Of a stretch of DNA of 64,000 nucleotides, positions 5,506 to 58,008 are shown piece after piece. A model generated the notes under the pieces. The model was not told the origin of the DNA. It did not search any database and saw nothing but the letters and a program-made list of their open reading frames with translations. Made by a program: the position numbers and the translations under genes. The stretch comes from Octopus vulgaris (lineage: Eukaryota). Each line of letters begins with the position of its first letter. Positions within the stretch are counted from its first letter, which is position 1. The DNA is taken from contig OX597825.1 of assembly GCA_951406725.2 (NCBI GenBank), positions 31,682,001 to 31,746,000 of the forward strand, read 5' to 3'.

Positions 5506-6342
5506 TCATAAATTTTTGTTAAGGACTTAATGTTTATAATCATTGACCAGACTCTTTTTATGGTCAAGAATAAAACTCCTCTTGCCCTCATCACATCTGG
5601 AATAGCAGGTAACCAGCTGTCTGATTTTCTTAAATTTCTATCATAAACAATCCAAGAACCCCTTCTTCACATCCTAAGCCACAGCAATGACCTCCATGTG
5701 CCTTTATGTGATTCCGTGGGTCAAATACTAATGTTTCCCAACATGATCATTGAAGTCCTCAGCTAGAAAGTGGACATCACTGTCATTGCATATAATGGAA
5801 CAGGATCTCTTAGAATGGAAAGTCAGGCTTTGTACATCATTCTGATACTTAAACAGAAGCAAGTTGCTGTGTCTGGGGGTGGGGTACATATACATATATA
5901 TATATATTCGCTGCTTTCTTCCAAGGAATCTAATGCTCTTAACTTCGTTTTTCCTTGGGGCTGGCCAGATTGGAGCAATCTTGTGTGTAACCAGCCATAA
6001 TTGCGAAGATAATCTGGAACTGAACTGAGGAAAGAAAACTCCGAATGACCCGTCCTTGTTTTCTTTGTATCGTCTATCTGGATTCTTTGTTGTACCTTTC
6101 TTGTATCACCTGACTGTCTGGATGTTTTGCATTCTTGTCCCATTTTACATTTTTATATATATATATATATATAATAATAGTTATCGCCATACTAATATGG
6201 CATTCTTATAAAAATAAGAAAAAAGCTGTCCGCTTATTAGCTCCATGAGGCCATCGCCTTAAGTTAGCTATTTGATACACAAACTGTATCCATATAACCT
6301 TCGAACAAGGGAGGTCAGTCGCTCCACACTACTTGACCGGCA

Positions 6343-6384
6343 GCTACAGACGCGTTTCGGGGTATTGCCCCTTTTCAATGCAGC
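6343..6384 (-). ncRNA. Type I hammerhead ribozyme motif, U3-A8 core variant (inverted copy)
   Basis: Reverse complement of 7058-7099. Confidence 0.75.
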
Positions 6385-7042
6385 GTAGCCAGCCAGTAGG
6401 TGTCGCTTCCGACAATCTCTGTTCGATGGTTTTATTTACCTAGTTTCGGTGGAATACATCCACTTGTTTTCAATAATAGAAATATTAAAATAACTAAGTC
6501 TCTCTAAAAGAGAACAGCGGCAGCGTTCCCGGAAAATAATAGTTATCGCCATACTAATATGGCATTCTTATAAAAATAAGAAAAAAGCTTAAGGCGATGG
6601 CCTTATAACTAAGTCTCTCTAAAAGAGAACAGCGGCAGCGTTCCCGGAAAATAATAGTTATCGCCATACTAATATGGCATTCTTATAAAAATAAGAAAAA
6701 AGCTTAAGGCGATGGCCTTATAACTAAGTCTCTCTAAAAGAGAACAGCGGCAGCGTTCCGGAAAATAATAGTTATCGCCATACTAATATGGCATTCTTAT
6801 AAAAATAAGAAAAAAGCTTAAGGCGATGGCCTTATGGAGCTAATAAGCGGACAGCTTTTTTCTTATTTTTATAAGAATGCCATATTAGTATGGCGATAAC
6901 TATTATTTTCCGGGAATGCTGCCGCTGTTCTCTTTTAGAGAGACTTAGTTATTTTAATATTTCTATTATTGAAAACAAGTGGATGTATTCCACCGAAACT
7001 AGGTAAATAAAACCATCGAACAGAGATTGTCGGAAGCGACAC

Positions 7043-7113
7043 CTACTGGCTGGCTACGCTGCATTGAAAAGGGGCAATACCCCGAAACGCGTCTGTAGCT
7101 GCCGGTCAAGTAG
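7043..7113 (+). ncRNA. Type I hammerhead ribozyme motif, U3-A8 core variant
   Basis: GCTGCA-TTGAAAA-GGGG caata CCCC-GAAA-CGCG-TC-TGTAGC; stem I extends past a UAC/U internal loop (TGGCTGGC pairs GCCGGTCA, CTAC pairs GTAG); palindromic stem III; GUC site. Confidence 0.8.
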
Positions 7114-7404
7114 TGTGGAGCGACTGACCTCCCTTGTTCGAAGGTTATATGGATACAGTTTGTGTATCAAATAGCTAACTTAAGGCGATGGCCTCATGGA
7201 GCTAATAAGCGGACAGCTTTTTTCTTATTTTTATAAGAATGCCATATTAGTATGGCGATAACTATTATTTTCCGGGAACGCTGCCGCTGTTCTCTTTTAG
7301 AGAGACTTAGTTATTTTAATATTTCTATTATTGAAAACAAGTGGATGTATTCCACCGAAACTAGGTAAATAAAACCATCGAACAGAGATTGTCGGAAGCG
7401 ACAC

Positions 7405-7475
7405 CTACTGGCTGGCTACGCTGCATTGAAAAGGGGCAATACCCCGAAACGCGTCTGTAGCTGCCGGTCAAGTAG
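7405..7475 (+). ncRNA. Type I hammerhead ribozyme motif, second tandem copy
   Basis: Identical to 7043-7113, offset 362 bp. Confidence 0.8.
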
Positions 7476-7776
7476 TGTGGAGCGACTGACCTCCCTTGTT
7501 CGAAGGTTATATGGATACAGTTTGTGTATCAAATAGCTAACTTAAGGCGATGGCCTCATGGAGCTAATAAGCGGACAGCTTTTTTCTTATTTTTATAAGA
7601 ATGCCATATTAGTATGGCGATAACTATTATTTTCCGGGAACGCTGCCGCTGTTCTCTTTTAGAGAGACTTAGTTATTTTAATATTTCTATTATATATATA
7701 TATATATATATATAGCTGTGTACATATACTTTGGTCTCTCTCTCACTCACTCTTTCTCTCTCTCTCTCTCTCTCTC

Positions 7777-7832
<56 letters not shown>

Positions 7833-8095
7833 CTAGCAGAGATACCAGGCATTGCTCAGGATTAAAATGTCATAGTTTTTTATTGTTTTACTTGTTTCAG
7901 TCATGTGACTGCAGACATGCTGGAGAACTGCTCCTAGTCGAAGAAATCGACCCCCAGGATTTACTCTTTGTAAGCCTAGCACTTATTGTATCAGAGTGTT
8001 CTGCCAAATGGCTAATTTACGGGGACATAAACACAACAATGATGCGAATACAAACACAGACACACACACACACACACAAGCACACGCACATCTAT

Positions 8096-18578: not shown

Positions 18579-19351
18579 ATGCTAGCGTGAAAATAGAGAA
18601 TAAGTGGAGCAGGCACAAGAAAAGAGCCAAGATTGCAAACAACAAGATATGGTACAAAATGTGACGAGTCAAAAGAAGATAATTACAAGAAATATAAATG
18701 GGCATGCACAAAATTTTGACAAAATGTTCAATGGCAAAGCATTGGAATTGTTAAGAAAGCAATTATCTATCACAGGAAACACAAAAGATGTCATATATAT
18801 ATCGTTGTGGTACATTTTTGGGGCCAATGCACAGTACGGCCTGTCCTGGTGACATAAGGTTTGTTTGTGTGTGTGTGTGTGAAGGCAGCAAGCTGGCAGG
18901 AACGTTAGCACACTGGGCTAAATGTTTAGTGGAATTTTGTCCATCTTTACATTTTGAGTTCAAATTCTGCCAAGGTTGACTTTGCTTTTCATACTTTGGG
19001 CAAGGACCAGTTGAGTACTAGGTTTGATGTGATTCATTTATCCCCAGCTTCTGAAATTGCTGGCCTTGTGCCAAAATTTAAAACCAATATATACATATAT
19101 ATATATATTTTTTTTTTTTTAAATTAAGGATAAAATCTTTATAAGAAATTATCAGTAGTTAGCGTGAAAAACCTCGTAAGAGAAAAAATCTAAATTTTTC
19201 CACTTTGAAAATATTTATTTATATTATATAGAGGGTACTATTATTCATAGGTACCGCATGCTAGGAGAGACTCTTGCAGTCAAAACTACTAAAATAAACA
19301 AATTGTACCAAATGCAAAACTTCAAAGCAAGTCATTTAAAAACAGAATTTA

Positions 19352-19415
19352 GTTACATATCACCTGTGATTTCGCAATCAATGCAGAATATGCATTCTAT
19401 GCTCTTCAGTGCAAC
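19352..19415 (-). ncRNA. Type I hammerhead motif, canonical core (left arm)
   Basis: Reverse complement of 19526-19589. Confidence 0.75.
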
Positions 19416-19525
19416 GAACTCAAGACATGTAAGGAAAAAACACAACATAGCATACCCGACAGCCAACCGTAGAATTCGTCATAGCATGTACGAATGTTTA
19501 TCTTTACATACGAATGTTTATCTTC

Positions 19526-19589
19526 GTTGCACTGAAGAGCATAGAATGCATATTCTGCATTGATTGCGAAATCACAGGTGATATGTAAC
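19526..19589 (+). ncRNA. Type I hammerhead motif, canonical core (right arm)
   Basis: GTTGCA-CTGAAGA-GCA..TGC-GAAA-TCAC ag GTGA-TA-TGTAAC; all three helices pair; AUA site. Confidence 0.78.
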
Positions 19590-19710
19590 TAAATTCTGTT
19601 TTTAAATGACTTGCTTTGAAGTTTTGCATTCGGTACAATTTGTATATTTTAGTAGTTTTGACTGCAAGAGTCCCTCCTAGCGTGCGGTACCTATGAATAA
19701 TAGTACCCTC

Positions 19711-19757
<47 letters not shown>

Positions 19758-30044: not shown

Positions 30045-30423
30045 AATAATAATGATAATGCCCCAATGCTCTGATGCAGTACCAGACAGTGTGCTCTCAT
30101 GGCTTCTGATCTTAACCGATTGGAAGTGTTATCATGTACATTGTTTTGTCTTGGTATAAAAGATGGTCTACAGCAAATATTCTGCTCAATACCACAGATT
30201 TGCCTGTCAGTTGTTTGACCATAACCAGTTGAGCATGTCCCTTGGTGGCTGACGATATGTGCATCTCTGATCATGAGCAGAAGTAGTGGGGAAGCATCAT
30301 AGCCCATGTGTTGAAAGGAATTCTTAGAGGTTTGGATAATTCACCTTTGGAAACATGGATGGTTTGTTCAATATCCTTAAACAATCCTTATTCAGGGACC
30401 TTTTGAGCGGAATGGGCTACTTG

Positions 30424-30726
30424 AATCCTTTCCCTTGTCATAAGGGAAAGAGATGGATAGAATGAACCAATCTAACTTAAAATCCTTATTGTTGTCTTTA
30501 AGATACCAAACCAAGTTACTAAGCCCTGTGCTATTGCGTTTACTGCTATCCCTAAATGAAGAATAATGATTGGAAATTCTCTTAAATAACTGGGAAGAGG
30601 AAGTGCCAATATAGAAATAGACATCAGTACCTGAAGAAATTCTACATTGGTATATAGAATTCTTGATCTTAGAATTATTAGACATAAATATAATTCTGTT
30701 GGGGTTGTTCTCAGAGACCAAAACTG

Positions 30727-30760
<34 letters not shown>

Positions 30761-30950
30761 ACTATGGGAAGGGCTGGTATTAACATAATTAATGTTGGAA
30801 CTCTCAGTAAATGAACTTTTATTTAGCAGACTGGAGTTATGAGAAGATATAATTTGTGAAAGATTCTTTGTGTTGGAGAAGGCAACTCTAACTATATGAG
30901 AATTAATAATTGAATAATATCTAGAATTTTTGGAAAGTTCTTACTAATGT
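30424..30950 (-). pseudogene. Penelope-like element linker plus GIY-YIG endonuclease fragment
   Basis: ORF 30392-30721: NSIYQCRI..FYIGTS..LFKRISNHYSSF..NSTGLSNLVWYLK..LDWFIL..PY; upstream KNFPKNSRYYSIINSHIVRVAFSNTKNLSQIISSHNSSLL matches the PLE RT-EN linker. Confidence 0.8.
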
Positions 30951-36096: not shown

Positions 36097-36432
<336 letters not shown>

Positions 36433-48824: not shown

Positions 48825-49327
48825 TGAGGTTTGATCTTGATCACTCCAACCTTCTTTCTTGTGTTACAGAGTAAGCATGGCCACTCCATTGGCAGTGTGC
48901 ACCAAGCAAGAACAGAGATCACTGATCTGATTTCTCTGGTCTGCAGGTCTATCAGGAGCTGGAATTTGTCACAGGCTTTCAATGCAATTCAGGGACAGTA
49001 CTGTACTGTATCGAGGAGTGTGTGAATGAATAAAGAAGTTTTAAAATGGCTGGGCAAGCACAAAGTTCAAAGAGGGAGCACGATGTCTATCAACTGCCAA
49101 CACTGATGTGAAGATTCAACAAGTTGAATAGATTGTTCTGGTAGACAGATAAGTGACCATTGTTGAGGTGGCATGTCCTTTGCAAATTAGTTCAGCATAC
49201 AAAATCATCCACGACAAGCTTCATTTCATTAAATCTTTGCAATATGGGTACCAAGAGACCTTGTCGAAGCCCATAAGTGCAATTGTGTAGAGATCTGTCA
49301 ATGCTTACTCGATTGCTACAAGACTAT
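48825..49327 (+). pseudogene. mariner transposase 5' fragment (ATG 48877), same family as 36593
   Basis: MATPLAVCTKQEQRSLI*FLWS..VTIVEVA..IIHDKLHF..WVPRDL. Confidence 0.85.
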
Positions 49328-49634
49328 TCTCTCCAAAAAACTTTGCCTTCATAGTTTTGTAGCAATCGAGTAAGCATTGACAGATCTCTACACAATTGCA
49401 CTTATGGGCTTCGACAAGGTCTCTTGGTTCCCATCTTGCAAAGATTTAACGAAGTGAAGCTTGTTGTGGATGATTTTGTGTGCTGAACTAATTTGCAAAG
49501 GACATGCCACCTCAACAATGGTCACTTATCTGTTTACCAGAACAATCTATTCAACTTGCTGAATCTTCACATCAGTGGTGGCAGTTGATAAACATCCTGC
49601 TCCCTCTTTGAATTTTGTGCTTGCCCAGCCATTT
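49044..49634. repeat. Large hairpin: 284-bp arms, 23-nt spacer
   Basis: 49351-49634 is the reverse complement of 49044-49327, roughly 95% identical by eye. Confidence 0.92.
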
Positions 49635-50656: not shown

Positions 50657-50887
50657 GGCAGCGAGCTGGCAGAAATGTTAGCACGCCAGGCGAAATACTT
50701 AGCGGTATTTCGTCTGCCATTAGGTTCTGAGTTCAAATTCCGCCAAGGTCGACTTTGCCTTTCATCCTTTTGGGGTCGATAAATTAAGTACCAGTTACAC
50801 ACTGGGGTCGATGTAATTGACTTAATCCCTTTGTCTGTCCTTGTTTGTCCCCTCTATGTTTAGCCCCTTGTGGGCAATAAAGAAATA
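50657..50887 (+). mobile_element. SINE family B nested in a family A-like SINE, 14-bp TSD
   Basis: AGAACTAAAAGAAG (50640-50653) and AGAACTGAAAGAAG (50888-50901). Confidence 0.85.
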
Positions 50888-51763
50888 AGAACTGAAAGAA
50901 GCTTATTTAATATTTGTACATATAGATACAAATATGAGTTTGTGTGTGTGTGTGTGTGTGTGTATGCATGTGAGTGCGTGTAGCTGTGTGTGAATGTATA
51001 TTTTTATGTCTCCTTGTCTTGACATTGCGTGATAGTTGTGAATGAGTGTCACTGTCATACAAGCAGTGTCATTCTTCCCAGTATTCTGCAAGAAACATGT
51101 CTGTCTATAGGGAAGCAAGTGAGGTTTACTGACAGGAAGAGAATCTGGCTGTAGAAAATCTGCCACAAGAAATTCCATTTAACCCATGCCAGCATGCAAA
51201 AGTAAACTTTAAAGTGATGAGTCCTGGTCACCCCGACTGCCAAGGGTACCTCAGGCAGGCACCGCTCTCCCTTTCAACCTCTTTAACAACAAGAACAACA
51301 ACAATGATGATAATACAGGTTAGGGTTTCTAACATTAGCAGAAGGCACAAATTTGGGGGTGGGTGAGGTATATGCACTTGATTAAATGAGTCACAGTATT
51401 TGGCTGGTACTTATATACAAGCATGAGTGTGTGTGTGTGTGTGTGTGTGTGCATCTGTGTATAGACACACACCAAGCTTTCAATGATACCATCAACCATA
51501 TTTCACTCACAAGGCAGTGATCAACTCATTGTTGAAAACATTTGGCAACAAAAGTGGCACATTATGGGATTGAACCTGAAACCATGTGGTTGGTTGCAAA
51601 GGAAACTTCATAGCCGTACAGCCATGCTTGTGCCTGTGTCTAAGACTACATTATCATATGTTCTTTTCTTGTTAATCATGTTCAATGAATGGAGATTTGA
51701 CTGTTAGCTCTTGCAGGACAAAAGCCTACACTCTCTTGTTGATATGATATTAACCAAATATTT

Positions 51764-52066
51764 GGAGGTGCATGGCCTAGTGGGTAAAGCAGCGGACTCA
51801 CAGTCGAGGGATCGCAGGTTCAAATCTCAGACCGGGCGATGTGTGTGTTTATGAGCAAAACACCTAAGCTCCATGTGGCTCTGGCGGAAGGTAATGGCGA
51901 ACTTCTGCTGACTCTTTCGCCACAACTTTCTCTTACTCCTTCCTCCTGCATCTTGCAGCTCACTTGCGATGGACCGGCGTCCCATCCAGGTGGGGAACCT
52001 ATCCACCAAGGAAACTGGGAAACTAGCCCTTATGAGCCAGGCAGGCTCGAGAAGGAACAAACAACA
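51764..52066 (+). mobile_element. tRNA-Arg-headed SINE family C (octopus OR-like) with TSD
   Basis: GGAGGTGCATGGCCTAGTGG..GGTTCAAATCTC; TSD CAAATATTT at 51755 and 52067. Confidence 0.88.
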
Positions 52067-53256
52067 CAAATATTTGGGTGGGGGCAGGGTGAGTTGGCAG
52101 AATCATTAGCATGCCAGACAAAACGCTTAACAGCATTTCTTCCAGTTTTATGGCCTGAGTTCAAATGCTGCCAAGGCTGGCTTTATCTTACATCCTTCCA
52201 GAGTCAAATAAAATAAGTATCAGTTGGGCCCCGGGGGTCAATATAATCAACTTACCCATTTGCCTCGAAATTGCAGGCCTTGTGTCAAAACTTAGAAAGA
52301 ACTATTTAAGAAATAATATTTTAAATATGTACTAAACCACAGAGAAACCAGAATGAACATTTTATATAATGTCAACAATGCAGAACTCTGGAACTACCGT
52401 AATCAAGCAGCATATCTCACACAACATCTCTATTGTCTTAGTTAAAGAAGCATTGATGTAGCGCCGAATACTCTATGCTTGCCTGATTGTTGCTTGCTAG
52501 TTATCTTCTCATCAAATGGGAGAGTGACAGTCGTAAACAGTCATAATTACAAACCATTAATAATTCCACTTTCAATCATTCCAAAATTACAGACCGTTAA
52601 ATTTTTTTTTTTTTTCTCCTAGTCACCCTACCTCCACACCTTGTACGATTGGAATATTTATTCTATCAGAATTTTCAAAATTTAGCAGTAAAAGAACTCT
52701 TGTAGAATTTTGAGAATTGAATATTATTTTTTTTGTTTTGTTTTGTTTTGTTTATTTAAAAAAGCTTTTATTTTTTTAATTATATTTTTATATTTTCATT
52801 CGACATTCAAAGTTCGTTATGGTGAGTTCTAAGAGACATAAGAGAAATTGTCAGAAAATACAACAGAAAGAGAGAAAGAGCAAGAGGAAATGGTTAATGA
52901 TTAGAGATGCTGAGATACTAAAAGAGATTTAGGAAGAGAAAAAAGAGAAAAAGAAAAAGAGTATAACATGAGAGAGAGGGGGGAGAGAGAGAGGAAAAGA
53001 GGAAGGGAGAGAGAGGAGGAATGATGGAAAAAGAAAAAGTGAAAAATAAGGGGGAAAATATTAAATATGTGTGTGGTGGGGTTATTATTTTGAAGTTAAA
53101 ATTTCACAATAATTACAATTCCTAGTTTCACAATTTAGCTTCAAAACAAAGCTGGAAATTCTATTTCTTGCATTGAGTACCGTTTTTCTCCCTCTAGTTT
53201 GTAAACACAAACTTTTATATAATTGAGTTTGTATTTATAAATGTATGTGTGTGTAT

Positions 53257-53307
<51 letters not shown>

Positions 53308-53528
53308 TTCATACATACATACATTTGTATATACATATATGTTTGTGTGTGTGTATGCATATATATATGTATGTGTGTTTGTATGTATGTATGTATGTAT
53401 GTATGAAATATATATACATATATGTAATATATATATATAAATATACATATATATATACACATATATATATACATACACACATATATATATATATATATAT
53501 ATACATACATACATACATACATACATAC

Positions 53529-53579
<51 letters not shown>

Positions 53580-53814
53580 TCTCTCATGTACCTAAAGAAG
53601 GAGTGAGAAAGCGAATAGGTGGGTATTTGCTATGAAGAATTTTTCCAAGAATTTACCATTCGTTACCATGTATAATAATATTTGTGTTAAAATGCCACCA
53701 GAGCTGAAAGAATCAAAACAAAAGTAAAATGTTGTCTGTTTAAAGATAATGTAGTTCAAAGAAAATGTCATTAGGAAAGAGGAACTCAACCTTAATTATA
53801 GCAGAGATGGAGAA

Positions 53815-54288
53815 TCATAATGGTAAATATAATGTGATGGTTGGCCTATAAGTATGCTTTTCAATCGGATGGGGAGGAGTTTTGGAGGTAGGGGAATATT
53901 TGGGAGTTAGGGATGTGGGGTATGGGGAAGTGAGAGGAGATAGAGTATTGTGGGGAAATGTGAGGGGACGTAGGGGAGTAAAGGGGCATATGGGGAATGG
54001 TGGGGATGTGGGAGGAGTGGTCCAGATTGTTTTGCATGTGGTCCACCACTCTCCTCTGTTCATTACCCATATTGTGTTCATCCACCTAAATTTACATTTC
54101 ACATTAAGATCCCGGTGATGATGATGATGATGATGATGATGATGGTGGTGTTGGTGGTGGTGGGGATGGGGGTGATGATGATGACAACAATGATGATGAT
54201 GACAATGATGATGACTATGACAATAATGATGATGATGATGATGATGATGACAACTGTTACTGAGTGTTTCCCTCATCATCTCAGGTAT
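53815..54288 (-). other. Candidate terminal exon (His-rich then Pro/Thr-rich ORF)
   Basis: Acceptor-like TCTCTGTTTTTACAG directly precedes ATA CCT GAG ATG, in frame with the 154-aa ORF; no homology recognised. Confidence 0.25.
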
Positions 54289-54504
54289 CTGTAAAAACAG
54301 AGATTGTTTATTAATTTTATTTGTATACTTGAGACATTCAGTTATTGTTGTAATATAAGCATTTTACATTTTCCAGACAAGAAAATCTCATCTGTCATGA
54401 ATTTGTCGGCCTCAGTTTACAATTTTTCAACCAGTTGAATTTGATCATTTCAGTTAATCTTTTTGTCCATTCTTAGGTATTCGGGTATATTTAAATGTGT
54501 ATAA

Positions 54505-54830
54505 AAGAACAGAAAACAAATGATCTCCATGATATTTTAAATATTTCATTTGTGCTGCCCTACAGCTGTTTCTATAACACACTTGCAAACACTATCAACT
54601 ACATAATAATTGCAAAAACTAATTAGCTGAGTGTCATATGGAATTCATTATATGAGTAATGTTTTTGAAACTTTTCAAAAGTGTTCTTTATGAAATTAAC
54701 TCTACATGACATATAAGTAATTAATTTCATGACTACAGTTCATTTTTGTAATTATTATCTAGTTGATAGTATTTGCTTGTGTAGAGCAGAACAAATGAAA
54801 TGTTATGGAGATTATTTATTTTCTATTCTT
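54505..54830. repeat. Old degenerate fold-back; left arm carries a hammerhead 3' half (GAAA-CAGCTG-TA on -, 54557-54572)
   Basis: GCAAACACTATCAACTACATAATAATTGCAAAAA vs TTTTTGTAATTATTATCTAGTTGATAGTATTTGC; ATTTCATTTGTGCTGC vs GCAGAACAAATGAAAT. Confidence 0.65.
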
Positions 54831-55324
54831 CTAAATATTTTGTTCTAAGCATTCATTTTAGCCAGCTTTAAACTCTGTGCCATTTAATACCTAGTGTCAC
54901 ATTGAAGTAATAAGATACTGGAGTTCAGCAACATGGTAAAGAACTGAATTTTTGAATTTTATGAATTTATTTTCAAGTGCATTGCACTTATACTTTATGA
55001 TAAATTATATTATATTTGAATATGACCAAAGATTGAACTCTTCTGTTCCAGGGCTAGTATCAATCCTGAAAAAGAAAACCCTTCCTGAACTGTCTTCAGA
55101 CAGCTATCTCAGGCCATGAGAACTCCAGGCAGTGAGTGAGGTCATTGCATAATCTCACTTTTGGTGTACCCTATAGTCTGTTCCATTCTCTTGGTATCAA
55201 AGCTACTTCTCATATCAATTACTTGATGTCCTTAGATCATACAATGTAACCAGCACATCTGTGTTTGTTTTTCCTGAGGATCAAACATAAGGTCTTCCGT
55301 ATGTATTTCATGCCTGTGATGAAG

Positions 55325-55750
55325 TAGAGAATCAAGATGTGGGCATTAAACAACACCATAATGTGCAAACTTACAATTGCACAGTGCAAGGTAGAGCACG
55401 TCATGCTTGGCATTCTTCTTCAGGGTCAGAAGACAAGCACCTGGATTCGACAGCAAAACCAACAGCATCATCATTGCCATCATGACTGAACTGATCTAAT
55501 CAAATGTGGTGTGGCAGACAAATTCCTGTCAGATAACTTGTCCTTCTCTTTAGGGCCAGAAGATATTTCAGCCCTTAACAAGTTTCTGATATTCTACAAG
55601 GCTAAACTGAGCTTCACAAAAGAGTACTGCTTCTACATTTAATGACACTACAGCTATTGTGTACACTGAAATCTTGGATTATATCCAGAGAAGGGCCACT
55701 TGACTGACTGGCACTTCATTGCTAACAGATGCATTCCAGCCTCTGACATG
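55325..55750 (+). pseudogene. Adjacent decayed LINE ORF2 fragments (RTE-like, then CR1/Jockey-like)
   Basis: WALNNTIMCKLTIAQCKVEHVMLGILLQGQKTSTWIRQQ; LIFYKAKLSFTKEYCFYI..ILDYIQRRAT. Confidence 0.55.
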
Positions 55751-56278
55751 ATGTTTTCTCTTTTGGTTTCTTTTTTCTTAATCACTCCTATAGTGGCCTC
55801 TGCTTCTCAGGGCTGGCTAATCTAATACCTCCACAACTCAGGCACCCCTGGCCTACTCATTTCTTCAACTCTCAATCCTCTTAGTGCATCCAATTTCCTC
55901 CCACCAACCTGCATTAACCACTTCGCTAAATTCTTCATCTGCAGAACATTGGCCTTCTAGAATCTCCTTCATTTTCATATCTTTCTTTTAGATGTTGATT
56001 TTTAACACTTTAAACCAAATATTAATAGCATCAATCTTACCAATCTCAAAAGACCTTCAAAAGACTTCTTTCAGTTTCTATTTATCAAGTCTGCTTGCAT
56101 GATTTTTTTGTTTTTGGTCCACCTGAAGCTGTAGTATACAATATTATTCTGTTCATCATCATGTGTTTGATTGTTATACTTTTAACAACCTTAACCATGA
56201 AGTGAACTCAGAGAGACATAGTGAAAGAAATTCCAATGTCACACTTTAAACAACCAAATCTCTGGAACTACAAGATGT

Positions 56279-56582
56279 TTGTTTGTTCCTTCTCGAGCTA
56301 CGCCTGGCTCATAAGGGCCAGTTTCCCGGTTTCCTTGGCATATAGGTTCCCCGCCTGGACGGGATGTCGGTCTGTTGCAGGTGAGCTGCAAGATGCAGGA
56401 GGAAAGAGTGAGAGAAAGTTGTGGTGAAAGAGTCAACAGAAGTTCGCCATTACCTTTCTGTCGGAGCCGTGCAGAGCTTAGGTGTTTCGCTCATAAACAC
56501 ACACATCGCCCGGTCTGAGATTTGTACCTGTAATCCCTCGACCGCGAGTCCGTTGCTCTAACCACTAGGCCATGTGCCTTCA
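56279..56582 (-). mobile_element. SINE family C with 13-bp TSD
   Basis: Reverse complement of 51764-52066; AACTACAAGATGT at 56266 and 56585. Confidence 0.88.
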
Positions 56583-57362
56583 CTAACTACAAGATGTAAT
56601 CAATAACGTTTAAAATAATACAACAATGTAATGTATGTCTATAAATTTATGCAACAACATAGAAAAAGGAGCATTTACGAAAACATGGAAGAGCCATAGG
56701 TCACACAAATTTATTTATGATTTCGTAAACTGTTTTTTTTTGTCTATTTGTGTGTTGCAGAACATTCGTTTGTTGTATGGTGTCTGTCACCAACCAAAAT
56801 AGATAGTAAAAAACCTCCCACTTGTTATTATCTAAAGAGCTTTTGTTTCATTAGCAAAACTTATTACTACTGATGTTCCACCTTTTCTCACAGCCAGAAA
56901 GTATTCCAGCATTCCTAAACCCTCTATTATGAAACTTTAGCTTTATTTAACTTGTTTCTCATAATACACAATGACTTCAATATAATAAAATATTTTATTT
57001 CTGTATCCACCTCCTCATAATGTTCAATAAATTATGAAAAGCAATTCATTGTAAATACAATTAAATTGGTTGCTTGTATTTCTTTATCACATATATAAAC
57101 AGGGCACCGACTTGGCTGCGTAGTTAGAAGATTACTTCTGAACCATGTGGTTCAGAGTTCATTCGCACTGCTCAGTAACTTGGGCAAGTGTTTTCTACTT
57201 TAGCCCTAGGATGATCAAAGCAGCCTTGTGCATGGATCTGATAGACATAAACTGATAAAGAACCTCATTGTATGTGTGTGTGTGTGTGTTATCTGTGTGC
57301 ATGTGTATGTGTATGCATGTATGTGTGCTTGCATGTGTGTGTATGTTTGTGTGAGTGTGTGT

Positions 57363-57393
<31 letters not shown>

Positions 57394-57774
57394 CGTGCGT
57401 GTTCATGTCCCCTTGTCCTATGTTAATTGTCACTTGTGATTTAATGTTCACCATCCTACATTCAGTGTTGTTTGTTTGCAATCTTCATGAAAACATGTCC
57501 AGCCAATGGGCTCTCTATGTTCAAAGGACTTAGGGAAATATTACCTTTTTTGGAAATGACTGAGGATTATCTACAGGAAGAGCTGGACAGCCACAAAAAG
57601 TCTGCCTATAAGACAGGGTTTCAGTGGGATCTTGGTCTCTGGAGTCTAAAGATCCAAGAAAGGGGTTGTGGCAATCTGCCAGGTCCTTCAATTAAAGTGG
57701 GTAAAAAAACTCAACCCTTTGGATTTTAAGAAGGCCCCCACCATCACCACCTTAATTCCCCAAAGCAATATCTT

Positions 57775-58008
57775 TCTTATTTCTTTACTGCCCATAAGGG
57801 GCTACACACAGAGGGGACAAACAAGGACAGACAAAGGGACTAAGTCGATTATATTGACCCCAGTGCATAACTGGTACTTATTGAATCGACCCCGAAATGA
57901 TGAAAGGCAAAGTCGACCTCGGCAGAATTTGAACTCAGAACATAGCGGCAGATGAAATACCACTAAGCATTTCACCCGGTATGCAAACATTTCTGCCAGT
58001 TTGCCGCC
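57775..58008 (-). mobile_element. SINE family B
   Basis: Reverse complement of 1630-1860. Confidence 0.85.

Follow-up and report, generated by a model that had tools for sequence, protein, structure and literature searches.

How animal retrozymes reach new loci is an open question in the field. Penelope-like elements (PLEs) have been proposed as helpers from co-occurrence and pLTR trees, and the use of a ribozyme-made circle by PLEs is disputed by in vitro data. Both matters arise at a locus in a 64,000-nt stretch of the Octopus vulgaris genome (hereafter the window), where a preliminary description had noted a short non-coding tandem repeat with a hammerhead ribozyme in each monomer. We asked what this element is, how its copies are inserted and which form of RNA serves as their template.

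The direct array spans 6817-7693 and contains 2.4 copies of a 362-nt unit with only 2 differences (6833 and 6917). An inverted arm of 417 nt at 6173-6589 is 100% complementary to 7215-7631. The monomer has a GC content of 41.7% and the longest stop-to-stop frames within the element are at most 55 aa. These direct measurements confirmed the first account of a near-identical, non-coding 362-nt tandem with about 2.4 direct copies and one inverted copy. Its extent of 6819 to 7692 was close to that of the array but not to that of the whole insertion, which starts at 6173 and of which both outer ends are 3' ends of the element adjoining (TA)n. The anatomy given earlier also stood. The first account had overlooked a 115-nt triplication, the 3' ends next to (TA)n and, most informative, the PLE two-site tail and the two-armed nature of the insertion. 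The parts of the insertion (locus L012) are as follows, with the monomer numbered so that 7094-7455 equals positions 1-362.

6150..6172 (start approximate), no strand: left (TA)n target flank
6173..7693, no strand: whole insertion, two diverging arms with 5' ends inside and 3' ends outside, within (TA)n
6173..6589, minus strand: inverted arm, 417 nt, from monomer position 122 through the junction to 176; its outer end is the short 'S' priming end at about 175
6349..6378, minus strand: hammerhead of the inverted arm, core to cleavage triplet
6490..6835, no strand: unit of 115 nt, present three times at the inner junction
6817..7693, plus strand: direct arm of 877 nt (2.4 monomers) that begins at position 86, crosses two junctions and stops at the long 'L' priming end (238)
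7058..7099, plus strand: hammerhead A, predicted to cut after 7093 (stem I 7058-7063 with 7094-7099; U3-A8 core 7064-7070; stem II 7071-7083; palindrome 7087-7092)
7094..7455, plus strand: cut-to-cut monomer, 362 nt, non-coding
7125..7149, plus strand: monomer positions 32-56, a genome-wide hot spot of arm 5' ends (28 observed against 9.2 expected, in a window picked post hoc)
7373..7508, plus strand: outer helix, 7373-7384 with 7497-7508, closing a long stem that spans the cleavage junction
7420..7461, plus strand: hammerhead B, predicted to cut after 7455
7631..7693, plus strand: 63-nt PLE-type tail, positions 176-238, between the two priming ends and present on one arm only
7694..7712, no strand: right (TA)n target flank

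The 115-nt unit combines positions 122-221 in inverted orientation with some 16 nt of sense strand, and its triplication is a local duplication or template-switch scar. High-copy short interspersed repeats, with very high summed contig depth, occur at 5890-6110 and 7868-8035, and we take the segment 9100-9330 to be likewise a high-copy short interspersed repeat flanking the insertion.

Each tandem unit contains a type I hammerhead with the core UUGAAAA, stem II GGGG/CCCC with loop CAAUA, the palindrome ACGCGU and the cleavage site GUC. Stem I is built of a proximal helix of 6 bp (GCUGCA/UGUAGC), an internal loop UAC/U and a long distal stem. The UAC/U and CAAUA loops presumably resemble those of the Schistosoma Sm-alpha ribozyme. 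Re-examination gave the same U3-A8 core, stems, loops, palindrome and GUC site as first described, and the 30-nt stretch from core to cleavage site was found in each unit (plus strand 7064-7093 and 7426-7455, minus strand 6349-6378), in agreement with one hammerhead per monomer. A U3-A8 hammerhead is reported to be natural and active in vitro (PMC3088659), and U3-A8 covariation is described for about 1,300 matches in Schistosoma Cercyon PLEs (PMC4209133); the view of U3-A8 as a compensatory variant is in line with these published PLE hammerheads. In an Rfam search of the whole window there were 0 matches at gathering score and no hammerhead family was among the 23 at E values up to 10. Since Rfam detects no hammerhead in the window, standard models miss the U3-A8 form, as had been anticipated for a canonical search, and searches based on CUGANGA or Rfam overlook whole retrozyme lineages with such cores. 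The miRNA-like Rfam matches were rejected; they correspond to the inner fold-back and lie far under their gathering scores.

The exact 30-nt core occurs in 892 dispersed copies in the genome (2.8 Gb, 227 contigs) and its reversed control in 0. The minimum free energy of the circular monomer is −121.9 kcal/mol, with a z-score of about −7 relative to 40 dinucleotide shuffles. Because of these two results the motif is not a product of chance. On contig C1 the 62 listed cores belong to 39 insertions, from which we extrapolate, with variant haplotypes uncounted, a family of roughly 560 loci. Our sample comprised 99 loci with 100 insertions, out of several hundred loci; 63 regions were chosen for an exact match to the motif (every listed one on C1, and on C2 the first 25) and 36 further loci as best full-length matches. 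Duplicates of other insertions (L003, L016, L028 and L029) and BLAST pieces below 85% identity were left uncounted. At least 2 complete hammerheads were present on one arm in 60/99 loci (26/63 in the motif-ascertained set), and the median longest arm was 658 nt.

Divergence was 0.55% within an arm, 0.67% between arms and 1.87% between loci. Common variants were carried by all units in 175/215 cases, whereas private variants occurred in all units 6 times, in some units 7 times and in one unit 159 times. At least six haplotypes can be distinguished, each homogeneous over units and arms. A haplotype shared by all units requires a single-monomer bottleneck at some generation. There is also an older sister family of about 70% identity, which is tandem, colinear and monomeric with the same two end sites. 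It keeps the core and the stems, with changed stem sequences and the palindrome ACCGGU instead, and the outer helix (7373-7384/7497-7508) is preserved as well. A degenerate sister-core pattern gave only 3 genome matches, too few for use. Older non-coding relatives (L071-L090; L198:1-292; L148; L061) were seen at about 70%, 80% and 85-88% identity, colinear where aligned, and represent several waves of one lineage.

The 100 insertions comprised 71 simple two-armed, 26 one-armed and 3 complex cases. Because the arms diverge, both outer ends of a two-armed insertion are 3' ends of the element. These ends fall in two classes 63 nt apart, near 175 (S) and near 238 (L). Simple two-armed insertions combined one S and one L end in 64/71 cases, with 2 same-end insertions and 5 others, and the excess of S+L is significant by a binomial test (p 6e-17 on the 66 classifiable insertions). 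One locus (L006) was scored one-armed owing to the 85% cut-off, though its layout is S+L. Outer 3' ends adjoined (TA)3 or more in 152/173 cases, compared to 371/3532 background positions and 7/27 outer 5' ends. The insertions thus display partial tandems, 5' truncation, an inverted 5'-truncated arm, a tail at one end and a microsatellite target, all traits of the PLE type. Published PLEs form partial tandems with an inverted 5'-truncated copy, an often one-ended tail of 30-40 bp and (TA)n targets (PMC8557442). In the mechanism described for them, both target strands are cut and extended; the reverse transcriptase (RT) starts at two internal sites downstream of the hammerhead, and the sequence that separates these sites is the tail (PMC11167929). 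The insertion ends of the octopus family show the use of PLE-type machinery with two-site priming. It is highly probable that the element is a non-coding, PLE-mobilised sequence.

No RT/GIY-YIG frame lay in or was continuous with the element across the 99 loci, so that it did not classify as an autonomous PLE, and an LTR-internal-LTR layout was found in none of them. PLE frames near three copies (L023, L042 and L053) are separate insertions beyond a microsatellite, with their own ends. A comparison of the monomer with 45 loci around RT-EN matches gave no nucleotide similarity except for the element's own copy in L091. In 38 further loci there was a single match (L198, 80%), which is a separate convergent insertion facing a PLE end to end. 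Loci of three young coding families and of older relatives sampled shared no pLTR sequence with the monomer, and a homologous pLTR or a 63-nt tail was seen in no coding PLE of the part of the genome examined, a sample drawn from 6,000-30,000 first-look candidates per search.

The genome does contain young coding PLEs. Family A (L121 type) has a unit of 4007 nt with an 811-aa RT-EN frame, 84 scored matches at 96-100% identity, and ends at 332/374, two sites 42 nt apart. In L121:2171-5916 (minus strand), and also in L122, L125, L126 and L128, overlapping long frames of 495 and 811 aa stop to stop were seen; compared with the single ORF usual in PLEs, these two frames may reflect an intron, a frameshift or an extra ORF. 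In family B (L172-L179, L042:3855-6001) all scored matches (150/150) had 100% identity across a GIY-YIG stretch of 140 aa, and open frames reached about 1200 aa; this is a very recent PLE burst. Family C (L184-L209, 20 loci read) has a 781-aa frame, ends about 38 nt apart and a long 3' region with internal repeats; its hammerhead-like motif has a U3-A8 core, the palindrome ACAUGU and a weak AU-rich stem I. In families A and C alike the hammerhead-like motif combines a U3-A8 core with a palindromic stem III, so that the U3-A8 form is common among the PLEs of this genome. By a cysteine motif before the GIY-YIG domain, of the kind described in PMC8557442, families A, B and C and the L053 family look like the Neptune/Nematis type. 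Pfam recognized only RVT_1 in the long frame of family A and nothing in the other three proteins, and a search of solved structures with the PLE proteins gave no match. As helper candidates related to the monomer by nucleotide sequence these four families were rejected, and a 13-nt match between the family B pLTR and the minus strand of the monomer is probably due to chance.

Other possible traces of such elements were noted in the window. At 36354 (minus strand) lies a hammerhead-like motif of minimal form whose core is the standard C3-G8, with similar motifs in L049, L006 and the family B pLTR. A 182-aa frame at 30392-30940 (minus strand) includes a GIY-YIG-like stretch and is by eye probably a remnant of another PLE. 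Further long inverted repeats at 49044-49634, 19211-19730 and 50657-58008 (284 nt at 95%, 208 nt at 97% and 235 nt at 87% identity) are possibly additional two-armed PLE-type insertions or MITEs.

Mismatches in the catalytic core numbered 8/2808 letters against 1116/83999 elsewhere. Stem positions had 92/4672 mismatches, no lower than the remaining positions; the stems are not better conserved by raw mismatch rate because variants that form G-U pairs (350, 352, 330) are frequent. At well-paired positions, substitutions shared by at least 3 loci preserved the pair in 11/13 cases, a count in which the double changes 9-322 and 47-286 each figure twice, and singletons did so in 20/94 cases (Fisher p 1.4e-5, indicative since haplotypes are related). 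The RNA fold is under selection. In an alignment of 15 young and sister rows U3 was present in 15 and A8 in 12, and both U16.1 and C17 in 15/15. A three-helix test on the young/sister alignment gave 88% paired cells against 29-43% in slid controls and 86.9% in shuffles, a figure that comes from related sequences and is given with no probability attached.

Folding of the genomic dimer (6970-7520) predicted a double hammerhead in which stems I pair crosswise and the 6-bp palindromes form a stem III duplex, with pair probabilities of 0.75-0.93 for cross stem I and the stem III duplex. This fold lies 1.9 kcal/mol below one forced into two separate hammerheads. The low stem I values in an earlier fold analysis are explained by the cross pairing. 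The dimeric folding through the palindrome that had been proposed for tandem copies is thereby upheld by the predicted structure and by the evidence that the fold is selected. The cut sites predicted to follow 7093 and 7455 gain support from the genome-wide anatomy, the fold selection and the modelled structure.

A linear cut monomer would yield at most 238 nt, since the priming sites sit in its first two thirds. The arms are longer: at least 724 nt in 36/99 loci, with a longest arm of 2737 nt, and they wrap into further monomers up to 7.5. The junctions bear no scars, as only 1 of 232 indels is situated within 8 nt of one. In set A the arms crossing 1, 2, 3, 4 and 5 junctions numbered 51, 24, 5, 1 and 1. 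In this stop-rate test, for arms with ends in the S or L class, the continuation per junction was roughly constant and the mean RT run was 334 nt. Arm 5' ends were in excess at the cut site (353-10, 16 against 6.6 expected; 1-10, 10 against 2.9), an excess noticed before testing and modest allowing for 18 bins; it hints that some templates start there. The pile-up at positions 32-56 is a larger excess and may be a structural RT stop or an RNA 5' end or start. In one locus (L168) a private variant is confined to the first pass of each arm, and in two others (L154 and L165) variants occur in blocks; such unlike units fit multi-unit templates or later DNA-level duplication or conversion. Variants alternating between monomers with period 2 were observed in arm 2 of L002 (variant at 139) and in L139 (variant at 63). 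This would fit a dimeric template read twice, and a later dimer duplication would look alike. Judged from the insertion sequences, a circular RNA template is somewhat more likely than not.

Published biochemistry sets limits to this view. With the anole PLE in vitro, hammerhead mutants had no effect on insertion and uncut RNA was the main substrate, and in that paper the hammerhead site was not the end of any RNA-seq read (PMC11167929). Dimers of Xenopus retrozymes were cleaved in vitro in 1/9 cases, according to the preprint 10.64898/2026.07.22.740005.

Among 20 runs with seven coded organism labels, 78-93% of the words of the window were present, and contigs of four runs (X1, X9, X10 and X15) cover the element piecewise. 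Contigs of X1, a run guessed to be RNA, had A-to-G differences over 7546-7667, with seven sites at 7577-7606 at a depth of 4-10. These sites were absent in X15, and the genomic letters there included 1 G among 2,191. The cluster resembles editing, possibly ADAR hyper-editing, of the double-stranded RNA expected from two-armed insertions, and is a weak hint in that direction.

Three other explanations have to be weighed. The most serious accepts the same non-autonomous PLE and takes as its template linear, multimeric RNA that is transcribed from tandem source loci and left uncut, with the hammerhead fold serving end processing, protein binding or a later step, and the monomer number restored by RT template jumps or DNA-level duplication. 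It agrees with the dominance of uncut RNA as substrate in vitro (PMC11167929) and with the unlike units of the three loci just described; the 5' ends at 32-56 could mark the transcription start of a linear RNA, and the 115-nt triplication at the present locus shows that DNA-level duplication or template switching does occur. On such a template, however, arms should shorten with each generation unless long masters exist, yet the continuation per junction stays roughly constant. The homogeneity of at least six haplotypes across units and arms, the scarless junctions and a catalytic core kept through about 30% divergence also speak against it, and we regard linear templating as rather unlikely.

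Much less credit is due to the idea that some coding PLE has this 362-nt unit as its terminal repeat and that the copies are its solo pLTRs or remnants of it with heavy 5' truncation, a caveat already raised in the preliminary description. A pLTR likewise has a hammerhead, a tail, an inverted arm and a (TA)n target (PMC8557442), and the genome has at least three young coding PLE families. Nevertheless, no arm enters a PLE frame in the 99 loci and the arms wrap into more monomers instead; the RT-EN loci sampled have no similarity to the monomer, given that the L198 match belongs to a separate convergent insertion, and the 70% identical sister family is likewise monomeric and colinear. We consider this origin very improbable. 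Still less probable, to the point of being scarcely tenable, is a minisatellite or satellite amplified at the DNA level by unequal crossing-over or extrachromosomal circles, with a decayed or chance hammerhead. Its units are head-to-tail, a preprint proposes local tandem amplification of inserted pLTRs (10.64898/2026.07.22.740005), and variants are block-wise at a few loci. The copies, however, are scattered over many chromosomes as short arrays that end at two fixed 3' sites, start at variable 5' positions and include inverted arms; they are not long local arrays lacking fixed ends, and the RNA fold has compensatory changes. The fixed two-end pattern largely refutes a satellite.

The retrozyme reading put forward at the outset is supported by the genome-wide anatomy, the selection on the fold and the predicted double hammerhead. 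Our preferred explanation is that the element is a young non-autonomous PLE that is also a non-LTR retrozyme and is multimerised on a circular template, a scheme that we hold as probable in its entirety. A tandem copy would first be transcribed. Neighbouring hammerheads would then pair through ACGCGU into the predicted double hammerhead and excise the 362-nt monomer, the ends of which would be held together by stem I and could be ligated into a circle. The lone hammerhead in the circle would have no stable stem III and hence stay uncut. As the insertion anatomy shows, a PLE-type RT-endonuclease nicks both strands of a (TA)n tract. RT is primed within the RNA at two places, for one strand about 175 and for the other about 238 nt downstream from the cut, so that the arms diverge and one of them is longer by the 63-nt tail. 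RT would pass the cleavage junction without scars, for up to 7.5 monomers and with a mean run of about 330 nt. Such read-through would regenerate tandem hammerheads in the daughter insertion, after which both cDNAs would be joined at their far ends.

A bolder form of this proposal, which we put forward tentatively and at somewhat less than an even chance, is that of a viroid-sized genomic RNA circle that has persisted on its own line of descent over no fewer than two or three amplification waves. A PLE RT-endonuclease would recognize it by its shape, prime the two target strands from a pair of internal sites on the circle and roll around it. It would be consistent with relatives that are young, about 80-88% and about 70% identical, and with no sequence-related parent among the PLEs examined. 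If it is true, rolling-circle reverse transcription would be preserved in each insertion, and the period-2 patterns (L002, L139) would stem from dimeric circles. The element would then be a 362-nt minimal substrate for the question whether PLE transposition uses a hammerhead-made circle, on which the model of 2014 and 2020 conflicts with the in vitro result of 2024. The family offers hundreds of nearly unmutated insertions with the PLE-specific two-site tail, and it sits alongside young, intact candidate helper elements. Due to the tailed insertions, the fold selection and the nearby candidate helpers, both the entry of retrozymes and the use of a circle are testable with one short RNA.

Retrozymes are known from mussel (repeats of 350-390 nt), coral and axolotl (Cervera and de la Pena 2020, PMC7229834), and the few hundred nucleotides initially cited for metazoan monomers agree with this molluscan range. 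The octopus family resembles these metazoan non-LTR retrozymes in its non-coding tandem monomers of a few hundred nt with GC under 45-50%, a type I hammerhead per unit, a highly paired monomer and the presence of PLEs in the genome. It differs by its U3-A8 core and by its insertions, which are two-armed, carry a PLE tail and lie in (TA)n. Circles were demonstrated for the retrozymes of PMC7229834 and are proposed for the octopus family. The words 'inverted', 'tail' and 'microsatellite' each occur 0 times in the main text of that paper. With the endonuclease-bearing (EN+) PLEs of PMC8557442, PMC11167929 and PMC4209133 it shares partial tandems, the inverted 5'-truncated arm, a one-end tail, the microsatellite target, the palindromic stem III and U3-A8 covariation. 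Unlike these, it has no ORF, its tail is 63 nt compared to 30-40 nt in print and 38-42 nt in the coding families of the genome, and its hammerhead is canonical, with a 6-bp helix I with internal loop and a 4-bp helix II, where that of EN+ PLEs is minimal. By the sequence-level definition the family is a non-LTR retrozyme, and it works like a non-autonomous PLE.

Further counterparts are the non-autonomous Chlamys elements, e.g. MRC1 (PMC8557442), which are likewise non-autonomous PLEs with pLTRs and multi-copy head-to-tail insertions. The Chlamys elements share 3' sequence with an autonomous family, whereas the octopus family has no sequence-related partner in the sample; they also belong to the clade with N-terminal EN and are said to be without canonical hammerheads, whereas the octopus family has one. 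A 2026 bioRxiv preprint (10.64898/2026.07.22.740005) already derives retrozymes from PLEs, on the basis of co-occurrence and pLTR phylogeny in vertebrates, three insects and a coral, and invokes local DNA-level amplification; the octopus family adds insertion anatomy as evidence, and its multimers appear to be made at insertion. The word 'tail' occurs 0 times in the preprint text searched. Neither the octopus family nor a two-site tail in a retrozyme was described in the papers searched. Retrozymes, U3-A8 cores and the PLE link are already published, and what is new within the literature searched is the insertion-level evidence for PLE two-site priming.
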